DNA from: a virus
Strand: one strand, 5' to 3'
Length of the DNA stretch: 64,000 nucleotides
Virus record (IMG/VR): IMGVR_UViG_3300016674_000106
Positions 34,097 to 51,379 of the stretch are shown here, one piece after another. The translations under genes were made by a program, and so were the position numbers. Under the pieces are notes generated by a model. The model was not told the DNA's origin. It saw only the letters and a program-made list of their open reading frames with translations, and made no database searches. Every line of letters begins with the position of its first letter. Position 1 is the first letter of the stretch.

Positions 34097-35338
34097 TTAT
34101 TTATAATAGGCAGTCTGACCAAACGGAGAAACAATAGTGTCGTTGCCGTGAATAATAAACAACGTTTCGCAGTAGTTTTCGTCACCCCAACTACCGCACG
34201 GATACCCGTCGGTAAACATGATAAACCGCTTAGGTTCGATACCTTGGTCCTTCATAAAATCAAAGTTAGCATCAAAATCAGTGCCGCCGCCGCCCTTAAC
34301 CTTGTAATGCATGATCTCGTCGGCGTTATCACCGCTAAACTTAGCATAATTATACACCTGGGTGTCAAAGCACCAAAGGTCGAGTTTAAAGTCAACATAC
34401 TCGTCCATGATGCCCTTAACTTCACTCAGGAAGTCCATGGCTTGGCGATCAGAGATGCTACCGGACATGTCGATTGCAACAGACACATCGATAGTTTCTT
34501 CGTTCATCATACCAGGCAACACTGCACCGCAGTGTTGGCTCTTACGGTTCGGCCGACTAAAGCTAAAGTTGCTTTTCAAAATGCTCTGAATGTTCATTCG
34601 CAGCATCTGACGCCAATCCATCTTCGGCTCAGTGAACTCTTGAATGAGCCGTGCAACGCCAGCCGGAGTCTTGCCCGCGCCCGCGCTTTGCATTGCAGAA
34701 ACCATCGCTTCTTTGATTTCGTCGCGAATGACCTTTTTTTCTGCTTCGGTTAGCTTCGGACGACCATTACCCTGCTTACCTTCTTCGTCACCACCGCCGC
34801 CTGAACCCTCGTCGCCATCGTCGTCAAGGTGTTCATCGAGCAGTTGCCCAAGTTGGTCCAGATCGATTTTGATTGCCGTTTTTTCGAGCTCTTCGTAAAT
34901 CTGCTCAAAGCTCCAGTTACGGTATTTGTCGTCTTGAAAGATTTTAATCTTTTTCGGAACTTCGCCGATTTTCTCGTCTTTGAGAATCTGATTCACCGCG
35001 TAGTCGGCTGCAATATTAGCCAGTCGCTTGTCGCGATGACCTGCGCGTCCAATATGGTCAAAAACGTTGTGAAGAACTTCGTGACCGAAGCCAAATTCAA
35101 TTTCTTTTGCGCTCAAGTCGAACACAAAGTTTGCATTGTAATAGAAGTTCCGGCCGTCGGTTGCAAGTGTGTCGCACCAATCGCTTGCATCAATAATTTG
35201 CATACGAGTAGCCATATTGCCAAAGAACGGATGGCGCAGCAGCAGACCGACCCGCGCAGTGGTCAGCTTTTCAACAATTCGATTGTGGTCTGCGGCAGTA
35301 AGTTCTCGAGCAGGGGCGTTGGGTTTTTTGGTTGCCAT
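34097..35338 (-). CDS. Metallopeptidase-like + VWA domain protein (DUF2201-type)
   Basis: HEVLH (HExxH) motif, acidic Gly-rich linker, MIDAS DMSGS, GGGGTDF; start moved to the ATG at 35338, downstream of its promoter. Confidence 0.85.
   Translation of the reverse strand: MATKKPNAPARELTAADHNRIVEKLTTARVGLLLRHPFFGNMATRMQIIDASDWCDTLATDGRNFYYNANFVFDLSAKEIEFGFGHEVLHNVFDHIGRAGHRDKRLANIAADYAVNQILKDEKIGEVPKKIKIFQDDKYRNWSFEQIYEELEKTAIKIDLDQLGQLLDEHLDDDGDEGSGGGGDEEGKQGNGRPKLTEAEKKVIRDEIKEAMVSAMQSAGAGKTPAGVARLIQEFTEPKMDWRQMLRMNIQSILKSNFSFSRPNRKSQHCGAVLPGMMNEETIDVSVAIDMSGSISDRQAMDFLSEVKGIMDEYVDFKLDLWCFDTQVYNYAKFSGDNADEIMHYKVKGGGGTDFDANFDFMKDQGIEPKRFIMFTDGYPCGSWGDENYCETLFIIHGNDTIVSPFGQTAYYK
34098..34105 (-). 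promoter_or_regulatory. Late promoter TATAAATA embedded in the VWA gene's last codons
   Basis: TAT AAA TAA (Tyr-Lys-stop) spells TATAAATA, 13 nt before the next ATG. Confidence 0.45.
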
Positions 35339-35366
35339 GTGTAAATCTCGCTGTGTTAGTGTGTTA

Positions 35367-35395
35367 ATTATACACAAGATGTAGGTAACTGTCAA
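35367..35395 (-). promoter_or_regulatory. Consensus sigma70 promoter (VWA gene)
   Basis: TTGACA (35395-35390), 17 nt, TATAAT (35372-35367). Confidence 0.8.
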
Positions 35396-35409
35396 TGCAC
35401 ATTTAGTCA

Positions 35410-35438
35410 AAAGTAAAGGGCCGGAGGCCCTTTACTTT
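35410..35438 (-). terminator. Hairpin/terminator between MoxR and VWA genes
   Basis: Perfect 13-bp inverted repeat AAAGTAAAGGGCC-gga-GGCCCTTTACTTT. Confidence 0.7.
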
Positions 35439-35451
35439 GAAAAAGTACCGA

Positions 35452-36534
35452 TTAGCCTTGCATTGCAGCAATAATGAACTTACCGTAACGCTGATGGAAC
35501 TCATCAAAGTTCTTCAGCTTAGACGGATCAAACGGCAGGTTATAGGTGCTAATCGCCACCTTTGCGCCCATAACGGTCATTTCCGTTTGGAAGTTATCCA
35601 TCATAAAGCGGAAGAAGTAGTCGGCCATTTCGTCCCAGTTATCGACTTTCTTCTTTTTTGCTGCCTGGAGCTCGTAGCACAGACTGATAGTCAGCGAGTA
35701 CATTGCCGAAATTTCCTTGATGTTACACTTAGTAACCTTGCCGGACAGCACATCTTCGGGCAGAGGCATTTGCTGTGCAACCTTGCGGTGAGCCATGAAC
35801 TTAACCGCAAGCCCTTCGCCGACTGCGCCTGCGATTAGGTCGGTAAGAGTAGATTCGGGAAGATTGTCATCTTCCAGCAGCTCGCTAACGAAGGACCAGG
35901 AACGCGGAGTAGCAAACGCGCGGCTAGTGCTCTTCGGGTCGAAATCATACAGATCTTGCTTGGCAAAGCCCAGATAACCGACTACTTGCTCGTGCACCTG
36001 ATTCAGGGTGGCCCACTTGAGCCAGTCGTCAAAGTCAGTGCGGAGTTCCAGATGCAGGAAACGGTTAGCCAGCGGAGCCGGCATACGATACGTAACGCCC
36101 TTGTCGGTCTCGCGGTTGCCAGCGGCAACAATGGACACACCATCGGGCAGTCGATACGTGCCAACGCGACGATTCAGAATCAGCTGATATGCAGCAGCTT
36201 GGGTTGCCGGAGCCGCAGAGTTCAGTTCGTCGAGGAACAGGATTGCGGTACTATTCGGATCGCTCGGCAGCTCGCTCGGCGCAGCCCAGGTCATCGTGCC
36301 AAGATCGGAGTTGTAATAAGGAATACCTTTGATATCGGTAGGCTCCCAAAGGCTCAAGCGCACGTCGATGACCTCACGACCTTCTTCGCGACCAATCTGA
36401 TGCACAATGTCGGACTTGCCGATGCCCGGAGGGCCCCACATAAACACCGGACGCTTCACATCGATACACTTGCGGATACCGCGGATAGCTTCGTTAGGGG
36501 TAACGGTGCGGTTGGTGGAGATCTTTTCAGCCAT
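35452..36534 (-). CDS. MoxR-family AAA+ ATPase
   Basis: Walker A GPPGIGKS, Walker B ILFLDE, AAGNR, PLANRF, TPRSW. Confidence 0.9.
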   Translation of the reverse strand: MAEKISTNRTVTPNEAIRGIRKCIDVKRPVFMWGPPGIGKSDIVHQIGREEGREVIDVRLSLWEPTDIKGIPYYNSDLGTMTWAAPSELPSDPNSTAILFLDELNSAAPATQAAAYQLILNRRVGTYRLPDGVSIVAAGNRETDKGVTYRMPAPLANRFLHLELRTDFDDWLKWATLNQVHEQVVGYLGFAKQDLYDFDPKSTSRAFATPRSWSFVSELLEDDNLPESTLTDLIAGAVGEGLAVKFMAHRKVAQQMPLPEDVLSGKVTKCNIKEISAMYSLTISLCYELQAAKKKKVDNWDEMADYFFRFMMDNFQTEMTVMGAKVAISTYNLPFDPSKLKNFDEFHQRYGKFIIAAMQG

Positions 36535-39284: not shown

Positions 39285-40007
39285 ATGGGAACTATCAGCA
39301 TGTCTATTTATTCTTACGGTAATCCGCCGCCTGGTTTCTATGTATATGCATATATTCGAAGTAAGGATTCGGTAACTGCTAACGCAGGAACTCCGTATTA
39401 TATCGGAAAAGGCTCCGGAAGACGAGCCTGGGAACAACACCGAAGAAAGAATAAAGGAGTGTGGACTCCTAAAAATAAAAATTTTATTGTTATAATTTCC
39501 TGCGATTTGACCGAAGTTGGGTCGTTTGCTATTGAGAGAAAGTTAATCAGGATCTGGGGCAGAAAAAATTTAGGTTCTGGAATTTTAGAAAATAAAACTG
39601 ACGGCGGCGAAGGAGCATCCGGAGCAGTTTGCTCAGAAGAGACCAGGCGCAAAATGAAACAGCCGCAGACTTTAGAGCATAACATGAATATTAGTAAAGG
39701 ATTACAAAGATATAACAGGACCGCCATTCATCAAGAAAATCTAAATAAGTCTCTGCAACGCCGCGGACCGTGTCCTGAACAGGTTAAAGACAAAATTCGA
39801 GAAACTTATGTGGAAAAATATAATAACGGTTACATTAATCCCGCTTCAAAGCAATGGCAGATTACAAACTTAGATGACGGTACAACTGTTGTAGTATTCG
39901 GGTTAAAAACATGGGCAGCTAAGAATAACTTTAACCCGAATACTGTTGATTGGTCAGCAAGAAAACATAAGAAATATAAAAATTTTTTAATAATTCCGAT
40001 GCTCTAG
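39285..40007 (+). mobile_element. Free-standing GIY-YIG/NUMOD3 homing endonuclease (Seg-like); likely start 39300
   Basis: YVYAY...TPYYIGKG...E..LI...G...G.L.N.TDGGEG, then NUMOD3-like SEETRRKM; opposite strand to all neighbours. Confidence 0.8.
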
Positions 40008-40507
40008 CTTATCTCAGACCTACCGTTTCCTAAATTATTAACGTTGATATAGCCGCTTCCGCGCCTTTCCATATCAACACCGGCTTCAGCACCCACTCCG
40101 CGGCACAAGTCTTGGAACCATTGATCAACAATCGCTTCATCAGATTCGCCGTCGTAGCCGGCAGTTTTTAATTGTAGCACAAAGTATTCGTTCCAGTCAA
40201 GCTCGAAGAACCCATTTCGGGGGTTCTGTTCGTTAACATGAGTTTCTAAAACACCAACCCATGGTTCCTTTTTTTCCGTTGCTCGCTCTTTTGGACTGAG
40301 CTTTGCTAATCGTTCTGCTTCTTTTGCAAGGTTTGCTGCATATTCAGCTGCTTCGCGTTCGACTTCGGCTTGAGCCTTTAATTTATTTGCCTCTAATGCA
40401 GCGGCTTCTGCCTCTCTTGCGGTTTTGATCGCTTCGGCTGCTTCTGCAATTGCTTCTTCTTTTAATTTCTCAAGACCAAGGGCTCGAGAAAGCCACTCTT
40501 TTAACAT
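40004..40507 (-). CDS. Hypothetical protein with Ala/Glu-rich coiled coil
   Basis: 167-aa ORF; its TAG overlaps the endonuclease TAG (CTAG). Confidence 0.6.
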
Positions 40508-40800
40508 TTAAATTGCCCCTTTTTCCAAACTTCTTCGAGAATTGTTATTGTAACTTGATCAGGATGATACGGAGAATAATCGATTCCGTCGACAATCTCT
40601 GGGTCCCAATCGAAGCTCCAGAGATTGTATTTGTTTCGGATATGCATTCCGAACCCTTGATGCAGAACCGTAAAGCTTATGTTGTTATATGGCATTCGGA
40701 AAAAATAGCTTTGTTCTTCTTCCGACATCTCTAAAATTTCCTTGTGCACTAAATCAACAATTTCGCTGAGCTTTTCGGTTATATGCATCACGTACCCCAT
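40501..40800 (-). CDS. Hypothetical protein
   Basis: 99-aa ORF overlapping the queE end and the next gene. Confidence 0.5.
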   Translation of the reverse strand: MGYVMHITEKLSEIVDLVHKEILEMSEEEQSYFFRMPYNNISFTVLHQGFGMHIRNKYNLWSFDWDPEIVDGIDYSPYHPDQVTITILEEVWKKGQFKC

Positions 40801-41639
40801 GCGTTCCTAAAAAGATCGACTTGAAGCCGCGGACTGTATCTAAGACCGTGTTGCATTGCTAACTTAGCTACGTTAGTGGTATTTAGATTATACACGTTAT
40901 CGGTCCCGCCAACTGGCATTAGATAAACGTGTCCGGTAAAGCCTGCCGATCGATATGCTGCAATTGCACATTCTGCGTCTGCAAAATCTTGATCAGTAGC
41001 GATTACAAACTTTAGATACGTATCGCCGACGGTTTGATAATCGCACACAACCTCGGGTTTGATCGCATGTTCCCATTTTTCGCCCGAACACGGTAGTTTC
41101 GCACTAACGCTAAACGTGATTTCGCCGCCTGCATGCGGATACCTTGCTGCGCGCCAACCTTTGAGATACTCTTTGAACTCGTCTGTTAGCGGTTGTGTGC
41201 CGTTAGTTTCGAACGTAATTTCTTTTAGTGCCTGCATTACAGGATGGTCGAGAAGTTCCGGGTATGCTCGTTGCCAGCCTAGCAGAGGCTCGCCACCGGT
41301 GATAATTAGGTGTTCATCCTTCCATTCTTTATTAGGAAGCAACATACAGATCTTTTCTGCAAGTTCGGTAGTACCAACCATCGGACTGAACTCTTTAAAC
41401 TTCGGGTGCCAAGATGCATACGAATCACAGCCAGTGGTTACAAGAGGAAGTTCCTCGTATGCTCGATACTGTTTCGGATCGATAAATTCTACTTCATTAG
41501 ATCGGCACCCTCGGTCCATACCAAACCCGGCACATGTAAAGTTACAACCGAACGTTCGAAGAAATACGCTCGGTACTCCGACATACTTGCCTTCGCCTTG
41601 GACGCTATAAAACAACTCTGCTACTTTAATTTTACTCAT
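40788..41639 (-). CDS. queE: 7-carboxy-7-deazaguanine synthase (radical SAM)
   Basis: ELFYSVQGEG...GVPSVFLR.FGCN..C, ITGGEPLL, FETNGT, VS.K, LKFV, YLMP, RLQV. Confidence 0.9.
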   Translation of the reverse strand: MSKIKVAELFYSVQGEGKYVGVPSVFLRTFGCNFTCAGFGMDRGCRSNEVEFIDPKQYRAYEELPLVTTGCDSYASWHPKFKEFSPMVGTTELAEKICMLLPNKEWKDEHLIITGGEPLLGWQRAYPELLDHPVMQALKEITFETNGTQPLTDEFKEYLKGWRAARYPHAGGEITFSVSAKLPCSGEKWEHAIKPEVVCDYQTVGDTYLKFVIATDQDFADAECAIAAYRSAGFTGHVYLMPVGGTDNVYNLNTTNVAKLAMQHGLRYSPRLQVDLFRNAWGT

Positions 41640-41664
41640 ATAATCTACCTTAATCTAAGTTACA

Positions 41665-41949
41665 TTATACACGATTGCTGTGAAATAATGTAGACCACGA
41701 CTTCAATTTGTTAACCTTTTTTGCCTTTGCTTGTTCTAACTCGCCCACAGTAATTACATTTTGGTCAATTAGATAGTCTACAATTGCAAGAATGTCGCCG
41801 ATTTCTTCGTTCAGTAGTTCTCTATTTTTAATACCTTCTTTAAGATGTAATTCGTCAATACCAAATCGACGACATTTACTAACTATTTGAATAACTTCGG
41901 CGCATTCTTCTTGTAAAATACCAAGGGCTTCGAGAATTTTATCGTTCAT
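41665..41949 (-). CDS. MazG-like nucleotide pyrophosphohydrolase
   Basis: LQEECAEV...L.EEIGD acidic motif; start MNDKIL at 41949. Confidence 0.75.
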   Translation of the reverse strand: MNDKILEALGILQEECAEVIQIVSKCRRFGIDELHLKEGIKNRELLNEEIGDILAIVDYLIDQNVITVGELEQAKAKKVNKLKSWSTLFHSNRV

Positions 41950-42478
41950 AACGGCAGTGACTTTTTTGTGTTTCCCAAAGCTCAACGGCAGAAACAGTAG
42001 CAATATCTTTGAGCTGAGATTGGGCGTAGTCGCTAAGAAACGCGCAAATGTTCTCTGAAGTGGGAACAAAGTTGACTAATACAAAACTATCTAAATGAAG
42101 CTTTCGAAACTCGCTAACCGCATAGATAGATGTGGTAACAAGTTCTCCTAGGTTGGTAAAGTTGTTAACATTTTCAGGAAGATCTAAAGGGTCAATGCTT
42201 GTAATCAATTCAAAGTTAGGATCATTGATGTCAATCATAAATTTATGATCTAACGTAGTATCGATAAACTGCTTCATGAAGTTTAAATTTTTAAAATCAG
42301 TAACCATGCTCGATTGATCGAGTTTTTCAGATTTTAAAAATACTTTAAGTGTGTAGCTATGCCCGTGTAGGTGTTTACAGGCACACTCGGTACTAATGCT
42401 CAGATGGGTGTGCTTGAGCTCCTGCGCCCAAACACGATGCCCCATTTCCCAATTAAACGCTTTATCAATGATCCACAT
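41939..42478 (-). CDS. queD: 6-carboxytetrahydropterin synthase
   Basis: GHRV...CKHLHGHSY...DFK...LDHKF...PTSENI...VELWET; start at 42478 coupled to the upstream stop. Confidence 0.9.
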   Translation of the reverse strand: MWIIDKAFNWEMGHRVWAQELKHTHLSISTECACKHLHGHSYTLKVFLKSEKLDQSSMVTDFKNLNFMKQFIDTTLDHKFMIDINDPNFELITSIDPLDLPENVNNFTNLGELVTTSIYAVSEFRKLHLDSFVLVNFVPTSENICAFLSDYAQSQLKDIATVSAVELWETQKSHCRYER

Positions 42479-42975
42479 TATTTTGCCCACCAGTCTTCGT
42501 ACGGAAAGTCAACCCAGACGTCATCTTCGTTTTTGTTGATAGTCATTCCTACGAAATCCATATCTACGTTTGCTCGACTAGACTGATTATCTACCACAAT
42601 GGCAAATTTAACGTTTTCATTCCACACATGCTTCCATCGATCTCGATCCGGAAGGCAAGACCCTTGCCAGTCTTCGATGATCCAATTGATAGTTGCTCCG
42701 GAATCGTTAATGTCGTCGACAATTAAGATTTTCTTACCGTCAAATGCATCCTCGCTCATCCATGCATTGGTTTCAGTTCCGCCGCCGTCGCGCAGGCTAA
42801 CTTTTAATGTTTCTAACGGTTTTTGAAAATACTGGCTGATCATTACAGCAGGAACAAGACCGCCTCGAGTAATGCCTACGATATAATCCGGAATCCAGCC
42901 CGATACAGCAATCTGCTGGCACAGGCTATTGATCAAACCTTTAAATTCGGTCTGATTAATAACAAGTTTTTTCAT
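42478..42975 (-). CDS. Type I (Gpt-like) purine phosphoribosyltransferase
   Basis: IVGITRGGLVPA and PRPP loop ILIVDDINDSGAT; ends WVDFPYE. Confidence 0.88.
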   Translation of the reverse strand: MKKLVINQTEFKGLINSLCQQIAVSGWIPDYIVGITRGGLVPAVMISQYFQKPLETLKVSLRDGGGTETNAWMSEDAFDGKKILIVDDINDSGATINWIIEDWQGSCLPDRDRWKHVWNENVKFAIVVDNQSSRANVDMDFVGMTINKNEDDVWVDFPYEDWWAK

Positions 42976-42976
42976 G

Positions 42977-43663
42977 TTAGCCCTTTGCAGTGTTAACGAT
43001 ATTCATAAACTCTGCACGAACTGCTGGATCAGTTTTAAATGCACCGCCGAGTTTGGAAGTAACAGTGGAACTACCGGTATCTTCAACGCCGCGTGCTGCA
43101 ACGCAATAATGTTTAGCATTAATTACAACGGCAATGTTATCGGTTTCGAGGATATATTGCAGTGCGTAATAAATTTGTTCGGTTAGCCGTTCTTGGATCT
43201 GAGGCCGCTTGCTAAAGTATTCGACAATTCGATTGATCTTAGAAAGCCCGAGAACCTTCTCGTTAGGAATATACCCGACAGTAGCGAAGCCGTCAATGAC
43301 CACAAAGTGGTGTTCACAATTTGATTGCACATTAACGTTTCGCTCTACGACCATTTCGTCGTAGTTCATTTTATTTTCAACAGTTGTGCACTTAGGAAAC
43401 GCGTCGTAATCGAGGCCCCAAAAAATTTCATTCACAAACATTTTCGCAACACGCTTTGGAGTTTCGACTAGACTATCGTCTGTTAGATCGAGTCCGAGCA
43501 CCTGCATAATCTGTCGGAAATGATTTTCGATGATATCGATCCGTTCCTTGCGATCACCGTAGCTTACGTCATTATTGACCGGTGTTTCTACACCGCACTT
43601 TACTAAATGTTCGTGGATTTGTTGACCTAGAGCCGGATCGGTTTTAGTTTTGTTGTATGACAT
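42977..43663 (-). CDS. folE: GTP cyclohydrolase I
   Basis: TPKRVAKM, CEHHFV, GLSKINRIV, RPQIQERLT, HYC..ARG; start MSYNK at 43663 after AAGGA SD. Confidence 0.95.
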   Translation of the reverse strand: MSYNKTKTDPALGQQIHEHLVKCGVETPVNNDVSYGDRKERIDIIENHFRQIMQVLGLDLTDDSLVETPKRVAKMFVNEIFWGLDYDAFPKCTTVENKMNYDEMVVERNVNVQSNCEHHFVVIDGFATVGYIPNEKVLGLSKINRIVEYFSKRPQIQERLTEQIYYALQYILETDNIAVVINAKHYCVAARGVEDTGSSTVTSKLGGAFKTDPAVRAEFMNIVNTAKG

Positions 43664-43725
43664 TTGATATCCTTCCTTACGCGGATTAATTTTGTAGATT
43701 GTTGTGTCACCGTTGTGTGACAAGA

Positions 43726-44829
43726 TTATTTATATGCTGCGATTTGCGAGATCAAATTATCTGCGCTAAAAAATTTCGATGTTAGTAACTGTTCAACTGT
43801 AGATAAGTCAACATTGTTATATGATTTAATTATACTGCGAATTTTGTCTACAATCAAATCTTTATGCGATTGATATGCATTGTAGTTAATTGTCCATTCG
43901 CTAGGGTACTTAAATTCTTCTGGATACATCTCAGTATAACTTAGACGGTCGGGCACAAACGGAATAGCACCAGCTAACACCCCCTCGTAAGGAGAAATTC
44001 CTAAAGTTTCTTGCAGGTTGGCACTAAAAACCATTTTTGCCTTGCCTAAGATTTGATGGTATTCGGTCTTAGTTAGCCGAGACTCTTGACATACAACAAA
44101 CTGATATTCCGGAATAGACTTTGCTAGATCTTTAAAAATATCTAGTTGTTTTTCTGGAGCAATACGGTGCGGAAATACGATTAGGTCTTCCTTTGTCGAC
44201 TTGTATCGTCTAATTTCATCTTTAAGATACTCCATCGGCCAGCCGGTTTGAATTACTTTTCCAGTGCGTTCGGCATTGTAATGCTCTGAGGGTCCTTCGT
44301 GTCCGAACAGATTTTTGAAGAACATACTGGTATGAAACTCGGTTGCAAAGTAGTTTTTATCAAGCGCATAAAAGAAACTTTTTTCAGTATGTCTGACCCA
44401 CGGAGCGTCACCGACAATTCTACCTAAGAAATCTTGCGGATCGTAGCTACCTGCATGCCAGAGCCCGTGCAATACCCAGTTCGTTCCTAGCAAATCCTTC
44501 ATATACTTAACTTGTAGGATTGTCGGGTTCCAAGCATCTGTAAACAGAATATGATCGTTCGGTTTGACTAGCCGATTATTAAACTTTTCTAAAAAGTTAA
44601 TAAGCTGCGAGCTTTTCCAATTGTTGGTGTCGGAGAAATTCAAAAATGCACCAGGAGTCGGTGCTGTGTTCAATTGTACACCGCTAATGTCACAGACATT
44701 GAACTTATCGGACAGTGCTTCTTTTAAAAGCAAAGGAATATGCACTTCCCACTGACCGGTGTATCTAGTTTCGATCGGTTCTAGAGACATTACCCAGATT
44801 GTGGGCTTTGAGAAATCCATTTCTATCAT
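43726..44829 (-). CDS. GT-B (GT4-like) glycosyltransferase
   Basis: VFPHR.APEKQ and E-x7-E motif ETLGISPYE, then GAIP.VP....Y.E. Confidence 0.8.
   Translation of the reverse strand: MIEMDFSKPTIWVMSLEPIETRYTGQWEVHIPLLLKEALSDKFNVCDISGVQLNTAPTPGAFLNFSDTNNWKSSQLINFLEKFNNRLVKPNDHILFTDAWNPTILQVKYMKDLLGTNWVLHGLWHAGSYDPQDFLGRIVGDAPWVRHTEKSFFYALDKNYFATEFHTSMFFKNLFGHEGPSEHYNAERTGKVIQTGWPMEYLKDEIRRYKSTKEDLIVFPHRIAPEKQLDIFKDLAKSIPEYQFVVCQESRLTKTEYHQILGKAKMVFSANLQETLGISPYEGVLAGAIPFVPDRLSYTEMYPEEFKYPSEWTINYNAYQSHKDLIVDKIRSIIKSYNNVDLSTVEQLLTSKFFSADNLISQIAAYK
43727..43734 (-). promoter_or_regulatory. Late promoter TATAAATA upstream of folE
   Basis: Formed by the final Tyr-Lys-stop codons of the glycosyltransferase gene. 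Confidence 0.45.
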
Positions 44830-44846
44830 TATAGATCCTTTAATGT

Positions 44847-44875
44847 AAAAAGCCCGGGTTACCCGGGCTTTTTTT
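44847..44875 (-). terminator. Intrinsic terminator (bidirectional form)
   Basis: AAAAAGCCCGGG-TTA-CCCGGGCTTTTTTT. Confidence 0.8.
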
Positions 44876-45062
44876 AGGCAGTTGCGTTGCGCTTCTTAGA
44901 CCTTGCCCAATCTTTGTATGCCTTCGATCGGTATAGATCTGCTTGGTTAAAGTTGATCAAGTTCAACCGACAGTGATCGTGCCACGCTTCAAGATCGTCA
45001 AAGATCTTGTTAACTTCGGGCTTCATCGTGAGGGTTTTTTGAATGTATCCAGGCAGTGCCAT
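44874..45062 (-). CDS. Small basic hypothetical protein with its own promoter
   Basis: 62-aa ORF, AAAGGA SD, promoter upstream and terminator downstream. Confidence 0.55.
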   Translation of the reverse strand: MALPGYIQKTLTMKPEVNKIFDDLEAWHDHCRLNLINFNQADLYRSKAYKDWARSKKRNATA

Positions 45063-45106
45063 TTATTGTCCTTTGTTTAGATTGTTTAAATTGTTACTAC
45101 AGTTAA

Positions 45107-45136
45107 ATATTACACGAGTTTGCTATTGTATGTCAA
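45107..45136 (-). promoter_or_regulatory. sigma70-type promoter
   Basis: TTGACA (45136-45131), 18 nt, TAATAT (45112-45107). Confidence 0.55.
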
Positions 45137-45513
45137 CTAATTTTTTTGGTATATTCGATCACACACCCGCATTCTCCGTCCTCGCTCACTTCCAGTGACA
45201 TATTTCTGTTCGGGTATCGCTTAACGACTTCGGCAGCAACGTCGTCTGCTAGCATTTCAACACTCTTGTGGTTGATGTCGATAACATTTGTTTCGAATAA
45301 AGACTCGCAAAAATTCAAAAACTGATGAAATTCAAGTTCACGATCGTCATGAAACACTTCGATCTTTACTTTAAATTTAAACAAATGTCGATGTCGGTTA
45401 GCAAGGTAGCTAACATCTTGTAAGGACGGGTCGGCCGCTGCCTGCGGGTAATAGTGGAAACCGGCCCGTTGAAACGTTACCCAGATCCAGCGAGAGGTAG
45501 TATGCGTATTCAT
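45133..45513 (-). CDS. Second QueD-like T-fold protein
   Basis: F...GFH.YP...LANRHRHLF.FKV...D.E.EF...S.E.LA...VSEDGE.G; HRH in place of the QueD HGH. Confidence 0.65.
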   Translation of the reverse strand: MNTHTTSRWIWVTFQRAGFHYYPQAAADPSLQDVSYLANRHRHLFKFKVKIEVFHDDRELEFHQFLNFCESLFETNVIDINHKSVEMLADDVAAEVVKRYPNRNMSLEVSEDGECGCVIEYTKKIS

Positions 45514-46040
45514 TTAATGATAGTATCCTTTCCGTACTTCTTCCAGTCTGTAAAAACTTTTCGATCCATTAAATCGTGTACATTGTGCACCCAAACTCCA
45601 GGATTAGTCCTATTAAAATCAATGTCATCGATCTTAATACACGCATTGTAGTTTAAATGCTTTATGTAAGGTATTTTAACACTAATTTGTGGAATAAACA
45701 AGTTGCTTTCTAACAAATGAGATTCTTGAAGTCCTTCTACCTCGGAAAGATCTAAGTCCAACGTGCACCAATATTTTTGGTCGATGCACGGTGTAATCAT
45801 TTTTTCCCACATAGACCAAGTGTCGTAGTCATCTGCTCCGTGCGTTTTAAAGCTCTGATTTGCACCGAAATAAATGTGTTCTACATTCCAGTCCTTGGCT
45901 AACTGTAAAATAGTTTCAGCATCGTGAACACCAGATACGAAAAGCGTCTTCATACCATATGCAGGCGTGTGCTCGATTTCGTCTCCTACGAAATACTGAA
46001 CATCTGCGTCAGATGTTCCTGTGTCGTAATCTCGTTTCAT
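45510..46040 (-). CDS. Hypothetical protein inside the deazaguanine island
   Basis: 176 aa, coupled at both ends (ATGA overlaps) to the TGT-like and T-fold genes. Confidence 0.65.
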   Translation of the reverse strand: MKRDYDTGTSDADVQYFVGDEIEHTPAYGMKTLFVSGVHDAETILQLAKDWNVEHIYFGANQSFKTHGADDYDTWSMWEKMITPCIDQKYWCTLDLDLSEVEGLQESHLLESNLFIPQISVKIPYIKHLNYNACIKIDDIDFNRTNPGVWVHNVHDLMDRKVFTDWKKYGKDTIIK

Positions 46041-47683
46041 TCTTTGACTCCTTCTTCAAGTGACCGCAGTGCATCGTCATCTGGGTCTTCGATATTAACT
46101 TCGTCAACTGACGTAACATCTTCGATATCAAACAGCGATGTAAACGTGTTTTGTGCGTTTCCGCCTCTAAGGCGAGCACCATCAAGACTACGTAAAAACG
46201 GCGATGCTTGCTCGATCATTGCAAATGCATCTTCTTTAGTGGTAGTCTCAAACAGCTCTTCCACGAACCGATCAAAATACAGAATATTACGAGGAACCCA
46301 ATCGCTATATTCGTCGCTGCCGGCTTGTTTAGCATTTAGCTTTCTCCAGTGACGCCAATCAGGCCGACCGTTAGGCTTTGCACGCTCAATGTCGACTAAG
46401 TTGTTTGCTCGTTGAACGGCCACGATGTGACAATAAACATTGTGCGCCATCATTAGTGCATATGCAAAACTATCCCAGCTTGTTCTTCCGATTTTGTTGA
46501 TCTTGTTCATCTTAGGAACAACCGTGTAATGCTCAGGATTTTCCGGATCAAACTTAATCTGTTTACCCGAGTCATCGACACCTAGTTCCGTATCAGTCTT
46601 TCGAACACCGGTATCATAGTAGCAAATGTCCCCTAGGGTCAATCGTCGGCCGATTTCGCTTTCGAATGGGAATGGGATGTCGCTTCCGGACAAGAGTTTG
46701 TTGTCTGGGGCTTTGTCCATAATAACGCTCCAACGCTTTGAAGTGTGTTGCGCGTTGGTGTAGACGAGGCCGTGCGCAGTTGCGATAAACGGTGAGGCGC
46801 AATCAAAAGATATGGTAAAGTTTTCATTAATGTGCTTTCTAATTTGACGTTGAATACTTGTTAAGTAACAGCTCCAGTCGAGTTGTGCAGTTCCTAGGAA
46901 GTGCATCCAATCTTTGCCTTTAAGTAGCCCATCTTCACGAAGAGTGATTAGTCGCTTTAGTGTAACGTCCATCTTACACATATTTGCGCCTCCCATTGCC
47001 CACCCTTCTGCGGCCTTATCGCCCCACACTGCAGGGTCGCTAAAGTCTTTTACCCCTTGATACCATTTTTCTGCAGTATCCCAGTCGCTACCTTGAAGAA
47101 CATTTAAGAACTTAGTTTGACCGAGACGATTTTTTAGAAAATATTCGTTGTTAAATCGAGTCTTGTCTAAGCAATCATCAAACGTTTTTAGACCAGTTTT
47201 TGGACTATGAATGTGATCGCACGCCCATGTAGGAACGTCGAGCATCATGGACCAATCTGCGGTTAATTCGAGCCATTCTAAAATCTGCTGACGAGTTTTG
47301 TTAGCTTCCGGACCTTCAAAGTTGAGCCAATCAAACTTTAGAACTCCTTTACCGATCTGATATCCACCAGAGTCGCCGAGGATCATTGTGTTTTCTCGAT
47401 CGCGCTGTTGAATCATCGATTCTTGGGTTAAGCTCTTGTTTAAGTCTAATTGTGCATGCCCTGCAGAATATAGACCGTACTTGTATGTAAAGTATCCTTC
47501 CTCGGCGTTTAAGAAATTCATGCCTTCGATGCCTCTATCAAAATCTGCAGGAATCCGATCTAAAGGCACAAATTCTTCTAATCGTTGTTTCGAAATATAA
47601 GTCCCGTAAAACGAACTAATGGCCGGAAGATACACAGCATAGTCTCGTTGTCCTGGGGTCAAGTTAACTGGTGGTTTTTTCAT
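46037..47683 (-). CDS. TGT-fold (DpdA-like) 7-deazaguanine transglycosylase
   Basis: TGT motifs in order: ILGDSGGYQ, MLDVP, VLQG, GWAMGG, HFLG, SFDCASP, HN. Confidence 0.8.
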   Translation of the reverse strand: MKKPPVNLTPGQRDYAVYLPAISSFYGTYISKQRLEEFVPLDRIPADFDRGIEGMNFLNAEEGYFTYKYGLYSAGHAQLDLNKSLTQESMIQQRDRENTMILGDSGGYQIGKGVLKFDWLNFEGPEANKTRQQILEWLELTADWSMMLDVPTWACDHIHSPKTGLKTFDDCLDKTRFNNEYFLKNRLGQTKFLNVLQGSDWDTAEKWYQGVKDFSDPAVWGDKAAEGWAMGGANMCKMDVTLKRLITLREDGLLKGKDWMHFLGTAQLDWSCYLTSIQRQIRKHINENFTISFDCASPFIATAHGLVYTNAQHTSKRWSVIMDKAPDNKLLSGSDIPFPFESEIGRRLTLGDICYYDTGVRKTDTELGVDDSGKQIKFDPENPEHYTVVPKMNKINKIGRTSWDSFAYALMMAHNVYCHIVAVQRANNLVDIERAKPNGRPDWRHWRKLNAKQAGSDEYSDWVPRNILYFDRFVEELFETTTKEDAFAMIEQASPFLRSLDGARLRGGNAQNTFTSLFDIEDVTSVDEVNIEDPDDDALRSLEEGVKE

Positions 47684-47915
47684 TGTTTGCTAGTATTATT
47701 GTTATTTTTAGGTGCTCTTTTGCTTTATTGAAGTTGTCTAATGCTGCCTGTACGGCAGCATTAGAATTCGCTAAGTTACGCATGTTAGCTTCTTCATGCA
47801 TTTTTTGTCTTGCCCATGACAAGATTGCAGATACCTCCGGCGTTAATCCGATACCGATCGCGTTGTCAGACGAATACACAACTAATTCAGGAGACATGCT
47901 GTTGCATGTGATCAT
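47664..47915 (-). CDS. Small hypothetical protein
   Basis: 83-aa ORF coupled to the clamp and TGT-like genes. Confidence 0.5.
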   Translation of the reverse strand: MITCNSMSPELVVYSSDNAIGIGLTPEVSAILSWARQKMHEEANMRNLANSNAAVQAALDNFNKAKEHLKITIILANNEKTTS

Positions 47916-48649
47916 TATGCTTGTGCCGGAATAATATATTTGTAAACAGCAAGGCCGCTATCGAGCGTGATCATAAGCGCACCGCTGTCAGAAATGCTAA
48001 GCTTAGAGTTATTGCCATCTGCAATCTTTAGAATGCTTAGAATTGCGCTCACAGGCCACGAGAACCGCTTAGATAAGTTACCGGTTACATTAGCAGCGAA
48101 TACAAACTCACCACCATGAGATGCTTGATCCCCGAAAATAAACTTCAGTGCGTTGTCTTCGGTCTTAGCGATAAAGGTAGTGTGTTCGGTGTTTGCACCT
48201 GCTTGAAATTGGAATCGTTGAATTGCTTGAATGCTAGGTTCAACTTCGACGTCCCAGTTAACTCCGCGGAACTTTACGGTCTTTAACTTATCATTGATGA
48301 TTTCGGTATTCATAAACCGATAGTCATTTTTAAAATCGCCGTCTGCATTTTCGAAGTGAATGCCAGTGGGCACTTCTTCGCCATTACGACTTGCGGTAAT
48401 GAGTTCAATCTTAGCGCCCGCTCTGTACTCCGAGCCGTCAACAAGATACTTCAACTTGTTAAGTTGCGGCATGCCGAACACGCCTTTAAGTTCTGGGTAC
48501 GGGGTAGCGGTTTCGGCGTACATAATCACCGTTCTGTCATCGGCCATAGAGTCGATTTTGGTAGACTCATCAGTTCCAGTAACTTTTACAATGTTTAAAA
48601 AGCCTAGGTTATGGGTGTGATAAACGATGTCTTGTAAGATTTCTTTCAT
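47915..48649 (-). CDS. Probable sliding clamp (gp45/PCNA-like)
   Basis: 244 aa, directly downstream of the polymerase, beta-rich two-domain pattern, C-terminal Y.YIIPA. Confidence 0.6.
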   Translation of the reverse strand: MKEILQDIVYHTHNLGFLNIVKVTGTDESTKIDSMADDRTVIMYAETATPYPELKGVFGMPQLNKLKYLVDGSEYRAGAKIELITASRNGEEVPTGIHFENADGDFKNDYRFMNTEIINDKLKTVKFRGVNWDVEVEPSIQAIQRFQFQAGANTEHTTFIAKTEDNALKFIFGDQASHGGEFVFAANVTGNLSKRFSWPVSAILSILKIADGNNSKLSISDSGALMITLDSGLAVYKYIIPAQA

Positions 48650-48709: not shown

Positions 48710-51379
48710 TTAATCAAAACTGAAAAGATTGTTGAACGTGTTGTCTTCGGTTGTAGACATCAGATCCCAGTCAAGGACTCCGATTAGGTTCTCAAGTTTA
48801 TTGTTGATAATTACGGACTCCATTTCGCTGTGGTCGAACGGTAATTCTTGAAACCACTTAGGCAATCGAAGTTCGTCGACGGGGTATGCAACTGACGTAA
48901 ACCCGATAGGGTTTTCTTTTAGCTTGCATACGATTACTTTCATGCCGTCAACAATCGGTTGGCTATACTTGTCCCCGTTCATGCGTCGCAGCGTGTTCCA
49001 ATTAATGCTTGCGCGCACATGTCCTGGCATAGTCGTTTTGCCATTCTTTTCTTCTTTAGCTTGGTACTCAGTAATGTTATTGGCCCGCTTCGGAGAACCT
49101 TTTTCCCAACCCGGCCTGGCCTTGAATAAAGTTCGAAATTCTTTAATCATTTCGAGGACTTCGGTCTCGCCGGCACCGTGTAGGACTTTATTTAGAACAT
49201 CGCTTAAGAAGTTCTGCATATATTCAGGCGTATCGCTGCGCTTTAGATCGAGCCCCATTGCCTTAATCTTTCCGTCTTTACCATTAACATCTTGACGCTT
49301 CCCGTCTTTGTCGTAATAAAGTACAGCATACCGTTTTTTGGTAATAAACAAGCCTTTAGAAGCTACGATTTCTCGCCCTGCTTTGATAACGGATCCGCGA
49401 CTCTTTGGACAATGAAATTTGTCTAACATCATCTGAGGGAAAGTGCTATTCACTTCTTCAGAGATGTTATCGTACAGATGGATTACAGTATCTTTATCCC
49501 ATTGAATAAGCCCTTTACTGATGTCATTCTTTAAGATAGGATACGCACTGAAATATGCAGAGTCAGTGTCACCGTAAATAATACTTTTACCCACATGATC
49601 GTACTCTCCGGTTATAAGTTCATTAACCTTTGCGGCCATATGCTTAGCAACTTGCCGGCCAGTGAGAGTTGTTGATTGTCCGATTCTGTTATCAAAGAAT
49701 CTGCATCCCGCGTTAAGAATTGCACCGTATAGCGAGTTTAGGTTAATCTTTTTAACTAGCTGTCGTTTGTCCCAGTACTCTTCTTCGATTGCATTTCCGG
49801 CTTCGATTGCTGCCTTTAACTTAGCCTGCATTTCTTTACGCTCTGAATACCATCGCTTTAGCAGACCAGGTATAATTCCTTCTTTTTCGTATGTAAAGAT
49901 TGTACCGTTGGCACTAATGGTCCATGGCTGGTTACTCTCGAATAACATTTCATAAATCTGAGCGCCCGACATTACGTCAGTTTGACCATTCTCCCAGTCA
50001 ATGATGATATCGTGAGTGCGATCCTTTGCCATTACAAACTCGTATTCGTTAGAACCGAATTTGCCTTCCCATGCTCCTGCAAAACTTGACCCTTTGGCCA
50101 TTTTTGCTTCGATTTCGGCCTTTGTGTATTCGGGTCTGAGCTGCCCGACAATGGTTTCTGGCCCCATGTTCAACGCGCGAATCGCAGAAGGATACAGAGA
50201 GTTAATGTCCATTGATCCGATCCAGTCGTGCAGCCCTTTCTTTGGATATGCAACATATGCACCCGCGGCCTGCGTATCTCCTTGTTCGCCTTTTCGTTGA
50301 CGACTTGGAACAATTAAACCGTGACTATGAGCTTCGTTAATAATAGCCTGCTCTGTAACGGCAACAGCTCCCATAATAGTCGGAAGAAGAACAGTGTTCT
50401 CGTGGGCAAGTGTGTTTGCAAGATCTAAGAACTTCAGCTTCTTATCTAGTCGATCCAACAGTGCTGTATCTTGCCGGTTGTATTCGATGAACTTTTTAAA
50501 ATCTCGATTGTAAAGCTGATCCAGCGTGCCTTCGTATTGAGTCTTTCTTTCACCGAGCTCGTAAAATGCAATAGCATCTAACGAATAACTATGCCGTTCT
50601 TCGTATGTGTATTTTCGATACAGTTCTAAGCTGTCCATGTGCACACGACCAACAAAGTCGTATGTAATTGCCGTTTTTCCGTACTTTTCGTACTCTCTCT
50701 TTTTCGGAAGCTGATTCCACAGGCAAAACCGCCGAGTATCATCTTTACTTAGAGTTTTTGTAACGCGATTAACAGTATACGGGATATCGAAACCTTCGCT
50801 GTTCCAGCCGCTTAATACATCAGCATCTTCGATAAGAGTTAAAAATGTATCTAACATCTCATACTCTGTTTCGAACAGGATAGTGTTAGGGAACTCTTTA
50901 ATTTCTTCTTGGGCCTGCTCCATTGTGAGCGTTTTTGGCGGAACTGCTAGACACACTAGAGTATCTAGCCATTGCATATGCACCGCAATCGAAGTAATCG
51001 GCATAAACGCATCCTCCGGCGATGCGTATCCGCGCTCTGGGTCAAAGTCAACTTCGATATCGAAAAACGCCACATTTAGTTTAGGCGCTTCTTTTCCAAG
51101 GTAACACTCTTCGAGCGCTCGGAACACCGGATTAATATCGCTTTCGAAGAGTTTTTTGCCAGAATGAATTCGTTGCTCTTTTGCGAACTCTTTCCAGCTT
51201 CGGCAACTAACCTTTGTAAGATTGTCGCCAAAAATGCTTTTATATTTTCCTTTCGGATCCGGATAATAGAACATATACCTTGCAGGTATATCTTGGTATA
51301 CGCGTTTTTGATCGGTGTTTCTTTCTACAACCCGTATAATATCGTCATCTCTTAACCAAATTGCATCTACGTAACTCAT
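48710..51379 (-). CDS. Family B DNA polymerase (gp43-like)
   Basis: Exonuclease FFDIEVD, GWNS..FDIPY, YN..D; polymerase DINSLYPS, K...NSLYG, YGDTDS, KKRY. Confidence 0.97.
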   Translation of the reverse strand: MSYVDAIWLRDDDIIRVVERNTDQKRVYQDIPARYMFYYPDPKGKYKSIFGDNLTKVSCRSWKEFAKEQRIHSGKKLFESDINPVFRALEECYLGKEAPKLNVAFFDIEVDFDPERGYASPEDAFMPITSIAVHMQWLDTLVCLAVPPKTLTMEQAQEEIKEFPNTILFETEYEMLDTFLTLIEDADVLSGWNSEGFDIPYTVNRVTKTLSKDDTRRFCLWNQLPKKREYEKYGKTAITYDFVGRVHMDSLELYRKYTYEERHSYSLDAIAFYELGERKTQYEGTLDQLYNRDFKKFIEYNRQDTALLDRLDKKLKFLDLANTLAHENTVLLPTIMGAVAVTEQAIINEAHSHGLIVPSRQRKGEQGDTQAAGAYVAYPKKGLHDWIGSMDINSLYPSAIRALNMGPETIVGQLRPEYTKAEIEAKMAKGSSFAGAWEGKFGSNEYEFVMAKDRTHDIIIDWENGQTDVMSGAQIYEMLFESNQPWTISANGTIFTYEKEGIIPGLLKRWYSERKEMQAKLKAAIEAGNAIEEEYWDKRQLVKKINLNSLYGAILNAGCRFFDNRIGQSTTLTGRQVAKHMAAKVNELITGEYDHVGKSIIYGDTDSAYFSAYPILKNDISKGLIQWDKDTVIHLYDNISEEVNSTFPQMMLDKFHCPKSRGSVIKAGREIVASKGLFITKKRYAVLYYDKDGKRQDVNGKDGKIKAMGLDLKRSDTPEYMQNFLSDVLNKVLHGAGETEVLEMIKEFRTLFKARPGWEKGSPKRANNITEYQAKEEKNGKTTMPGHVRASINWNTLRRMNGDKYSQPIVDGMKVIVCKLKENPIGFTSVAYPVDELRLPKWFQELPFDHSEMESVIINNKLENLIGVLDWDLMSTTEDNTFNNLFSFD

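Follow-up and report, generated by a model that had tools for sequence, protein, structure and literature searches.

The 64,000-nucleotide window analyzed here, meaning the whole stretch of DNA taken from IMG/VR record IMGVR_UViG_3300016674_000106, carries on its minus strand, at 40788 to 47683, a gene island that probably (probability of roughly 0.78) encodes a QueC-independent, DpdL-type 7-deazaguanine DNA modification module, in a jumbo-type phage that has PA5oct and Phosso among its relatives. An earlier note on this DNA had placed the genes of the island downstream of a clamp-like gene and a polymerase, and all of them were present. The route it proposed, in which 7-carboxy-7-deazaguanine (CDG) becomes 7-deazaguanine without QueC and an enzyme of the tRNA-guanine transglycosylase (TGT) fold places the base in phage DNA, is supported by the comparisons below, and among the candidate bases it listed, decarboxylated 7-deazaguanine is the best supported. 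The core of this pathway is already known. What the core does not explain is a glycosyltransferase (GT), a 176-amino-acid (aa) protein, and a 62-aa open reading frame (ORF) that travel with DpdL.

In the proposed pathway, FolE, QueD, and QueE would, by their family assignments, convert GTP to CDG, and DpdL, possibly together with the QueE-like 176-aa protein, would convert CDG to 7-deazaguanine. A 548-aa DpdA-like enzyme would then exchange guanine for 7-deazaguanine in newly made phage DNA, a step that fits the place of its gene directly after the polymerase and clamp genes. A MazG-like enzyme may trim the (d)GTP pool, and a phosphoribosyltransferase (PRTase) may either recycle guanine freed by base exchange toward GTP, the substrate of the pathway, or activate the deazaguanine base. 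The purpose would be to shield the phage DNA against restriction and other defenses that target DNA.

Central to this assignment is the second T-fold protein of the island, a 126-aa QueD paralog (45133 to 45513, minus strand) that, by motif, homology, and its match to PHROG 17812, is DpdL. As defined by Cui, Hutinet et al. (Nucleic Acids Research, 2023; PMC10516641), DpdL is a QueD paralog in which CxxxHGH has changed to LxxxHRHxF; it is found in phages that have FolE, QueD, QueE, and DpdA without QueC, and it was proposed to be the CDG decarboxylase that gives 7-deazaguanine. The window protein has LANRHRHLF at residues 37 to 45, matching the published motif. It is 63% identical (E 1e-55) to the protein of Acidovorax phage ACP17 named DpdL in that paper and, by BLASTP, 33% identical to CGPG_00067 of phage phiST over 58 residues spanning the motif (E 5e-10). 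DpdL accompanied by FolE, QueD, QueE, and DpdA, without QueC, occurs in the window and in PA5oct, Phosso, ACP17, and BCSR5, whose genomes are complete. Literature searches for DpdL beyond the 2023 paper returned nothing relevant.

The enzymes of CDG synthesis were recognized with differing clarity. FolE, a GTP cyclohydrolase I (42977 to 43723, minus strand), scored 214 bits with Pfam and 321 bits with NCBIfam model NF006824, against a cutoff of 202, and QueD, a 6-carboxytetrahydropterin synthase (41939 to 42490, minus strand), scored 90 bits with Pfam PTPS and has the canonical CxxxHGH. The QueE-like radical SAM CDG synthase (40788 to 41639, minus strand) matched PHROG 2076 over its full length (E 2e-50); its Pfam Radical_SAM score was 24.7 bits, against a cutoff of 29.5, and NCBIfam QueE models gave 41 to 51 bits, far below their cutoffs. 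Cysteines at 32, 36, and 45 are visible in this single sequence, which is 32% identical to the PA5oct QueE. FolE, QueD, and the PRTase exceeded curated Pfam cutoffs; QueE and MazG were recognized clearly by PHROGs alone.

The earlier note had found no QueC or QueF in these 64 kb, and this held: six-frame searches of the window with a QueC profile, the Escherichia coli QueC and QueF sequences, and the divergent QueC-like proteins of relatives found neither enzyme, nor a PP-loop motif. QueC likewise had no match in four complete genomes of relatives, those of PA5oct, Phosso, ACP17, and BCSR5, and in the genome of Xanthomonas phage X1 the only QueC match was below threshold.

A gene set of this kind has a published precedent. 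In the Cellulophaga phage phiST, all G in the DNA is replaced by 2'-deoxy-7-deazaguanosine (dDG); FolE, QueD, QueE, DpdL, DpdA, and MazG without QueC form the published dDG pathway (PMC10516641). The combination of no QueC, a second T-fold protein, MazG, and a TGT-fold enzyme, which the earlier note described, is thus not new but that of phiST (PMC10516641), and the motif of the second T-fold protein agrees exactly with the published DpdL signature. The phiST island runs QueD, QueE, FolE, MazG-like protein, DpdL, an unknown gene, DpdA3, and a small ORF, followed by the polymerase region. Like the window, phiST has no QueC, encodes FolE, QueD, QueE, an LxxxHRHxF paralog, a MazG-like protein, and a distant TGT-fold transglycosylase, and keeps its modification genes between the CDG genes and the polymerase; a homologous PRTase lies 17 kb away in phiST. 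It departs from the window in lacking both a GT of this family and a 176-aa homolog, and in having a 259-aa DpdA3 as its transglycosylase. The phiST product is known (dDG, 100% of G), whereas that of the window is predicted from its genes.

Two further phages share more of the island. ACP17, for which only DpdL and DpdA have been discussed in the literature (PMC10516641), has a block of DpdA2, GT homolog, DpdL, 176-aa homolog, FolE, QueD, and QueE that adjoins the polymerase and, like the window, lacks QueC; identities are 63% for DpdL, 39% for the GT, and 30% for the 176-aa protein. It differs in having a 424-aa DpdA2 and no PRTase and in being a T4-like phage of 156 kb. The Pseudomonas jumbo phage PA5oct (Wroclawvirus) shares with the window, in the same order, the polymerase, the clamp-like gene, a small ORF, a 540-aa DpdA-like protein (44% identity), the GT (45%), DpdL (41%), the PRTase, and QueE; it differs in that FolE, QueD, and the 176-aa homolog are encoded outside this block, in other parts of the genome, and in that its polymerase is split by a homing endonuclease. 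PA5oct DNA resists restriction at G-containing sites, from which the authors inferred a modified G, naming QueE and PTPS genes without identifying the base (PMC12191111); its chemical identity was not reported in the literature searched.

A DpdA-like protein with a TGT fold

The gene for the predicted transglycosylase (548 aa; 46037 to 47683, minus strand) was assigned from an AlphaFold2 (AF2) model, Foldseek searches, motifs, and profile alignment. Its model and motifs indicate a TGT-fold enzyme in which the two catalytic aspartates and the motifs for base binding are retained. The model, built on an alignment of 95 representatives, had a mean predicted local distance difference test score (pLDDT) of 89.9 and a predicted template modeling score (pTM) of 0.90. 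In a Foldseek search of the PDB the best 50 matches listed were all tRNA-guanine transglycosylases (E of about 4e-6, probability 1.0, template modeling [TM] score by target of about 0.5), and matches in BFVD included annotated phage TGT/DpdA proteins. Residues D104, S105, G107, P151, H261, and D294 are invariant in the 95 family members. When the family was aligned with E. coli Tgt by hhalign (probability 89%, E 2e-6), DSGGFQ, LD, QG, GWAMGG, and FDC coincided with Tgt motifs, which in TGT carry the general acid/base, guanine-binding, and nucleophile aspartates. Read against the same Tgt alignment, the CxCxxC...H zinc site is absent, and from about residue 405 the protein continues into a C-terminal helical extension of about 140 residues.

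Among phage enzymes, the family profile matched the 424-aa DpdA2 of ACP17 best (hhalign probability 96.6%, E 7e-10), over 178 columns that cover the catalytic core only; BLAST of the 548-aa protein against this DpdA2 found no similarity at E 0.01. The ACP17 enzyme is in turn 34 to 36% identical to the experimentally characterized DpdA2 proteins of Vibrio phages nt-1 and VH7D, which have been shown to insert preQ0 or preQ1 into DNA. The 548-aa protein shares with these the TGT-fold core and catalytic motifs; its family differs in the C-terminal helical extension and in being encoded together with DpdL rather than with QueC, QueF, or ArcS. A DpdA3 assignment was rejected, as the hhalign match to phiST DpdA3 (CGPG_00065; probability 73%, E 3e-5, 84 columns) is weaker than that to DpdA2. 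Foldseek against BFVD also matched the model to the 259-aa phiST protein M4SLA5 (E 8e-4), and both DpdA3 matches are weaker than those to DpdA2 or E. coli Tgt. The comparison with DpdA subfamilies proposed in the earlier note thus gave no match to a curated model and a profile link to DpdA2, and the 548-aa protein appears to represent a separate DpdA2-related subfamily of DNA transglycosylases, of which no account was found in the literature searched.

Gene context also fits a DpdA. The 548-aa gene stands in a single co-directional block with FolE, QueD, QueE, and DpdL, and does so likewise in PA5oct and in 80 related viral loci, every one of which was retrieved through its DpdA-like gene. In PA5oct, no other TGT or DpdA candidate was found by Pfam, leaving the 548-aa homolog as the sole TGT-like candidate in the genome. 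The family is very large: clustering at 90% identity yields more than 6,900 clusters, and clustering at 50% yields 884 representatives.

The glycosyltransferase and other partners of DpdL

The 367-aa GT (43726 to 44829, minus strand) was recognized as a GT-B, GT4-like enzyme from its Atlas model and its donor-site motifs. The model, the Atlas's own (pTM 0.90), aligned to GT4 clusters with TM scores of 0.72 to 0.80 over 315 to 339 residues, and its structural neighbors include clusters of the tRNA-queuosine mannosyltransferase (QTMAN) at 0.72 to 0.76. In 40 family members E274-x7-E282 and R222-x4-K227 do not vary; E-x7-E and R-x4-K are the donor-binding signatures of GT4 enzymes, and with these motifs intact the GT is probably active. 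At E 0.01 it matched neither Pfam (Glycos_transf_1, Glyco_transf_4) nor NCBIfam models, and a PDB sequence search found nothing; some of the related Atlas clusters do carry PF00534. At least 8,000 proteins at 90% clustering match the family.

This GT keeps close company with DpdL. A homolog is the immediate neighbor of DpdL in PA5oct, ACP17, and Phosso, in X1, BUDD, and BCSR5 the two genes are no more than about 3 kb apart, and in the cyanophage BUCT-ZZ01 the 388-aa gene directly after DpdL encodes a member of the family (hhalign probability 97.8%), for a total of seven isolate lineages. The association holds with either type of transglycosylase, DpdA2 or the 548-aa protein. No GT homolog was found in phiST, RHph_I1_18, or Ahp1, all of which bear DpdL, and phiST, the sole DpdL phage examined whose base is known, has plain dDG. 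Across the 80 related viral loci, the order of polymerase, clamp, DpdA-like gene, 176-aa gene, DpdL, 62-aa ORF, and GT is invariant in those that extend that far, while FolE, PRTase, MazG, and QueE vary in presence. Accessory co-occurrence, to which the earlier note had looked, is therefore divided: the GT, 176-aa, and 62-aa genes are constant after the DpdA-like gene where the contig reaches them, and the PRTase and MazG come and go. For the constant association of a GT4 enzyme with DpdL, no account was found in the literature searched.

By analogy with known enzymes, the GT would transfer a sugar from a nucleoside diphosphate sugar to the deazaguanine, either in DNA or as the free base. HuiG, a GT4-family enzyme of huimycin biosynthesis, puts N-acetylglucosamine on the 2-amino group of a 7-deazaguanine base (PMC7439116; 10.64898/2026.04.15.718813), so such chemistry exists. 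Like the window GT, both HuiG and QTMAN are GT-B enzymes of the GT4 type; these two place a sugar on a 7-deazaguanine derivative. The likeness to HuiG is one of enzyme type, and no sequence-level relation to the window GT was found for QTMAN. HuiG acts on the free base, the acceptor of QTMAN is the queuosine cyclopentenediol, which is absent here, and DNA is the substrate of neither. In the phage product the sugar might be attached to the exocyclic 2-amino group, the site used in huimycin, or, more speculatively, to the electron-rich C7 freed by decarboxylation. Sugar decoration, which the earlier note had raised, thus stays a live possibility, and addition of the sugar by this GT falls a little short of an even chance. 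More tentative is the broader proposal that phages with DpdL and a GT4 enzyme (this clade, PA5oct, ACP17, Phosso, X1, BCSR5, and BUCT-ZZ01) carry a sugar-bearing 7-deazaguanine in their DNA, with the 176-aa and 62-aa proteins as tailoring parts. Searches of the literature for glycosylated deazaguanine in phage DNA returned nothing relevant.

The gene for the conserved 176-aa protein (45510 to 46040, minus strand) overlaps both the DpdA-like gene and DpdL by 4 bases. Its family comprises 5,077 proteins (about 5,000 at 90% clustering) with many invariant Asp, Glu, His, and Lys residues, and its AF2 model (pLDDT 79.6) is an alpha/beta partial barrel. Comparison of the model with solved structures by VIA-align gave middling matches, the best to a STAS domain (Z 7.7), with QueE appearing three times at Z 5.3 to 6.0. 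Two QueE clusters were matched in the Atlas (TM 0.58) and a weak QueE row in AFDB. A Foldseek search of the PDB gave nothing at E 0.001, an Atlas feature search found nothing, and the cysteines that would hold an Fe-S cluster are absent. QueE thus recurs among the nearest named matches of the model, a faint resemblance from which no fold is claimed. A homolog directly precedes DpdA2 in ACP17 (30% identity, E 1e-21), and another is found elsewhere in the PA5oct genome (48% identity); the family profile found none in Phosso, BCSR5, X1, BUCT-ZZ01, or phiST. The phiST gene CGPG_00066 was considered as a counterpart and rejected, the two not being detectably related (probability 2%).

The 62-aa ORF (44874 to 45062, minus strand) lies between DpdL and the GT, as it does in nearly all of the related viral loci long enough to include this point; it has no homolog in the isolate phages examined. 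Neither it nor the 176-aa protein has been described as a partner of DpdL in the literature searched. As a separate observation, the GT/DpdA2/DpdL island of X1 includes, directly after FolE, a 177-aa protein annotated as "PAPS reductase family" (L092:5837-6370), which may be another tailoring enzyme in that lineage.

Points against the reading, and competing explanations

Several points weigh against a QueC-independent DpdL module and its extension to a sugar. Support for both the core and the sugar step comes from comparison of families, folds, and gene context, not from the chemistry of this phage or of its GT-bearing relatives. The decarboxylase activity of DpdL is so far a proposal in the literature (PMC10516641), and when DpdL and DpdA of phiST and ACP17 were expressed in E. 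coli no dDG was formed, for which the authors suggested that further enzymes were missing (PMC10516641). The 548-aa protein matches no Pfam, NCBIfam, or PHROG model, including TGT (PF01702) and DpdA (PF23859); only 1 of its 95 family members matched Pfam TGT (E 0.0045), and phmmer and profile searches of protein and family against PDB sequences found nothing. The failure with the curated models carries little weight, since two accepted enzymes, ACP17 DpdA2 and phiST DpdA3, go undetected by the same Pfam models. For the sugar step, 7-deazaguanine has no hydroxyl, so that the acceptor atom is not obvious, and GT4 enzymes accept many kinds of acceptor, so that the GT could serve another target. 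Finally, the absence of QueC is shown for the window and the cultured relatives rather than for the whole genome of this phage, and a divergent QueC-like PP-loop protein is encoded about 90 kb from the island on three of the five long contigs examined from close relatives.

A plain dDG as in phiST, with the GT of the operon acting on another DNA base, a protein, or a component of the host envelope, is on balance unlikely, yet it accommodates a good deal. All G is replaced by unsubstituted 7-deazaguanine in Vibrio phage VP1 (10.1101/2025.10.29.685425) as well as in phiST, this base offers a GT no hydroxyl, and DpdL phages without this GT exist (phiST, RHph_I1_18, and Ahp1). It leaves unexplained why the GT should stand beside DpdL, or no more than about 3 kb from it, in seven isolate lineages of differing DpdA and virion types, and why its place in related viral contigs is always after DpdL and the 62-aa ORF. 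The window contains no other evident acceptor pathway, and the inactivity of DpdL and DpdA alone in E. coli, with the suggestion of missing enzymes (PMC10516641), also speaks for a further step.

The PRTase and the MazG-like gene bear on a pre-replicative route like that of tubercidin, in which the PRTase would join CDG or 7-deazaguanine to phosphoribosyl pyrophosphate (PRPP), kinases and ribonucleotide reductase would yield the deaza-dGTP, and the polymerase would incorporate it; MazG would destroy dGTP, and the TGT-fold enzyme would be secondary or repair leftover G. The 165-aa PRTase (42478 to 42975, minus strand) is a type I, Gpt/HGPRT-like purine enzyme by its Pfam Pribosyltran score of 61 bits and its PRPP motif ILIVDDINDSGAT. 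The 94-aa MazG-like nucleoside triphosphate pyrophosphohydrolase (41665 to 41949, minus strand) matched PHROG 4856 (E 2e-23), scored 19.9 bits with Pfam MazG against a cutoff of 22, and shows acidic EExxE and EExxD motifs; the MazG-like gene of phiST occupies the equivalent place in its island. Its start is most likely the ATG at 41949, which overlaps the end of queD by 11 bases; a 134-aa reading from a TTG was rejected in its favor on inspection of the sequence. The close packing of these two genes between folE, queD, and queE suits such a route, as does the precedent of the tubercidin clusters, in which QueC is missing and CDG is acted on by a PRTase and then by a decarboxylase (10.64898/2026.04.15.718813). 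PRTase homologs occur in PA5oct, in BUCT-ZZ01 (E 6e-18), and in the dDG phage phiST (CGPG_00045; 30% identity, E 5e-14). The phiST homolog, at L096:28218-28646, is the one 17 kb from the deazaguanine genes, near ribonucleotide reductase, and the main text of the 2023 paper (PMC10516641) does not mention "phosphoribosyl."

The distribution of the PRTase, which the earlier note had listed in the island, argues otherwise. Neither ACP17 nor Phosso, both with complete genomes that carry the rest of the module, has a homolog, and one occurs in only about one-third of the related loci long enough to cover the island, so that a nucleotide-pool route is not the general mechanism and the PRTase is more likely an optional accessory. 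Each isolate examined has a DpdA, the loci themselves having been retrieved by a DpdA-like gene, and in the published view all known phage deazaguanines are inserted after replication (PMC10516641). The pre-replicative route is accordingly rated improbable.

Completion of preQ0, 7-amido-7-deazaguanine (ADG), or a derivative by a QueC-type enzyme encoded outside the window, which would make the island part of an ordinary preQ0-type pathway, is quite improbable. The window covers only part of the phage genome, and the QueC-like proteins of the relatives (206 to 235 aa) have SGGxDS and a C-terminal CxxCxxC, two of them scoring above the Pfam QueC cutoff (30 to 32 bits). The contigs that carry them encode a DpdA-like protein 76 to 79% identical to that of the window. 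Against this, the QueC-like genes are distant from the island and not syntenic with it, DpdL was published as a marker of QueC-less pathways (PMC10516641), and the other two of the five long relative contigs (47 to 65% complete) have no QueC-like gene, as was the case for complete PA5oct, Phosso, ACP17, and BCSR5. The search for queC beyond the window that the earlier note had proposed therefore cut both ways, with none in the four complete relatives and a QueC-like gene in three of the five long contigs. The QueC-like genes were recorded at L082:1180-1800, L084:1093-1800, and L084:1694-3049 (contigs G005 and G002); next to the gene in G002, and abutting it, is a 451-aa ORF with many Cys motifs of radical-SAM-like type.

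That the TGT-fold protein acts on host or phage tRNA, with the island supplying a queuosine-type precursor for translation, is hardly credible: its closest solved structures are tRNA-guanine transglycosylases, but it lacks the CxCxxC...H zinc site, its gene directly follows the polymerase and clamp, its profile links it to DpdA2, which was shown to insert deazaguanines into DNA, and PA5oct, with the same gene, has restriction-resistant DNA (PMC12191111).

Gene neighborhood and significance of the module

The island is part of a single, closely packed, co-directional minus-strand array that runs from the polymerase (48710 to 51379) through a 167-aa ORF (40004 to 40507), in the order polymerase, 244-aa clamp-like protein, 83-aa ORF, 548-aa protein, 176-aa protein, 126-aa DpdL, 62-aa ORF, 367-aa GT, FolE, PRTase, QueD, MazG-like protein, and QueE. 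The family B DNA polymerase (minus strand) was identified by Pfam DNA_pol_B (128 bits) and an exonuclease domain and is about 50% identical to the polymerases of PA5oct and Phosso. In PA5oct the family B polymerase (L001:1605-6831) is interrupted by a homing endonuclease gene that leaves it in two parts; in the window the polymerase is encoded by a single uninterrupted ORF of 889 aa, which can be aligned to both halves. The 244-aa protein (47915 to 48649, minus strand; PHROG 12062) appears clamp-like from its identity to a Phosso gene annotated as a sliding clamp (38%) and to EST35_0314 of PA5oct (37%). Between it and the DpdA-like gene lies the 83-aa ORF (47664 to 47915, minus strand), found in the same position in about half of the related loci.

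At the other end of the array, the 167-aa ORF (minus strand) comes after QueE in a majority of the 80 related viral loci, and homologs occur shortly after QueE in PA5oct (EST35_0324) and Phosso; it had no Pfam family in a Pfam scan and may be a further member of the module. A 99-aa ORF (40501 to 40800, minus strand) that overlaps the end of queE matches Pfam DUF6794 above its cutoff (30.6 bits). Farther away, the structural half of the window holds a single ORF of 4,210 aa (12439 to 25071, plus strand), and a MoxR-type AAA ATPase (35452 to 36534, minus strand) adjoins a DUF2201 metallopeptidase/VWA-like protein (34097 to 35410, minus strand), a pairing known from cellular genomes and here found in a phage.

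The module is very abundant, with most matches coming from metagenomic contigs of up to about 480 kb, and none of the DpdA-like, GT, and 176-aa proteins has a curated family. Deazaguanine modifications of DNA shield phages from restriction enzymes and some CRISPR nucleases, and deazaguanine DNA is itself sensed by newer defenses such as END nucleases and antiviral DNA glycosylases. Decoration of the deazaguanine by the GT, if it occurs, could also explain why DpdL and DpdA alone failed in E. coli. The question is open to immediate testing, as PA5oct and ACP17 are both in culture. A sugar-bearing 7-deazaguanine, if it exists in these phages, would be the first glycosylated purine known in any genome and a new chemical class of DNA base.

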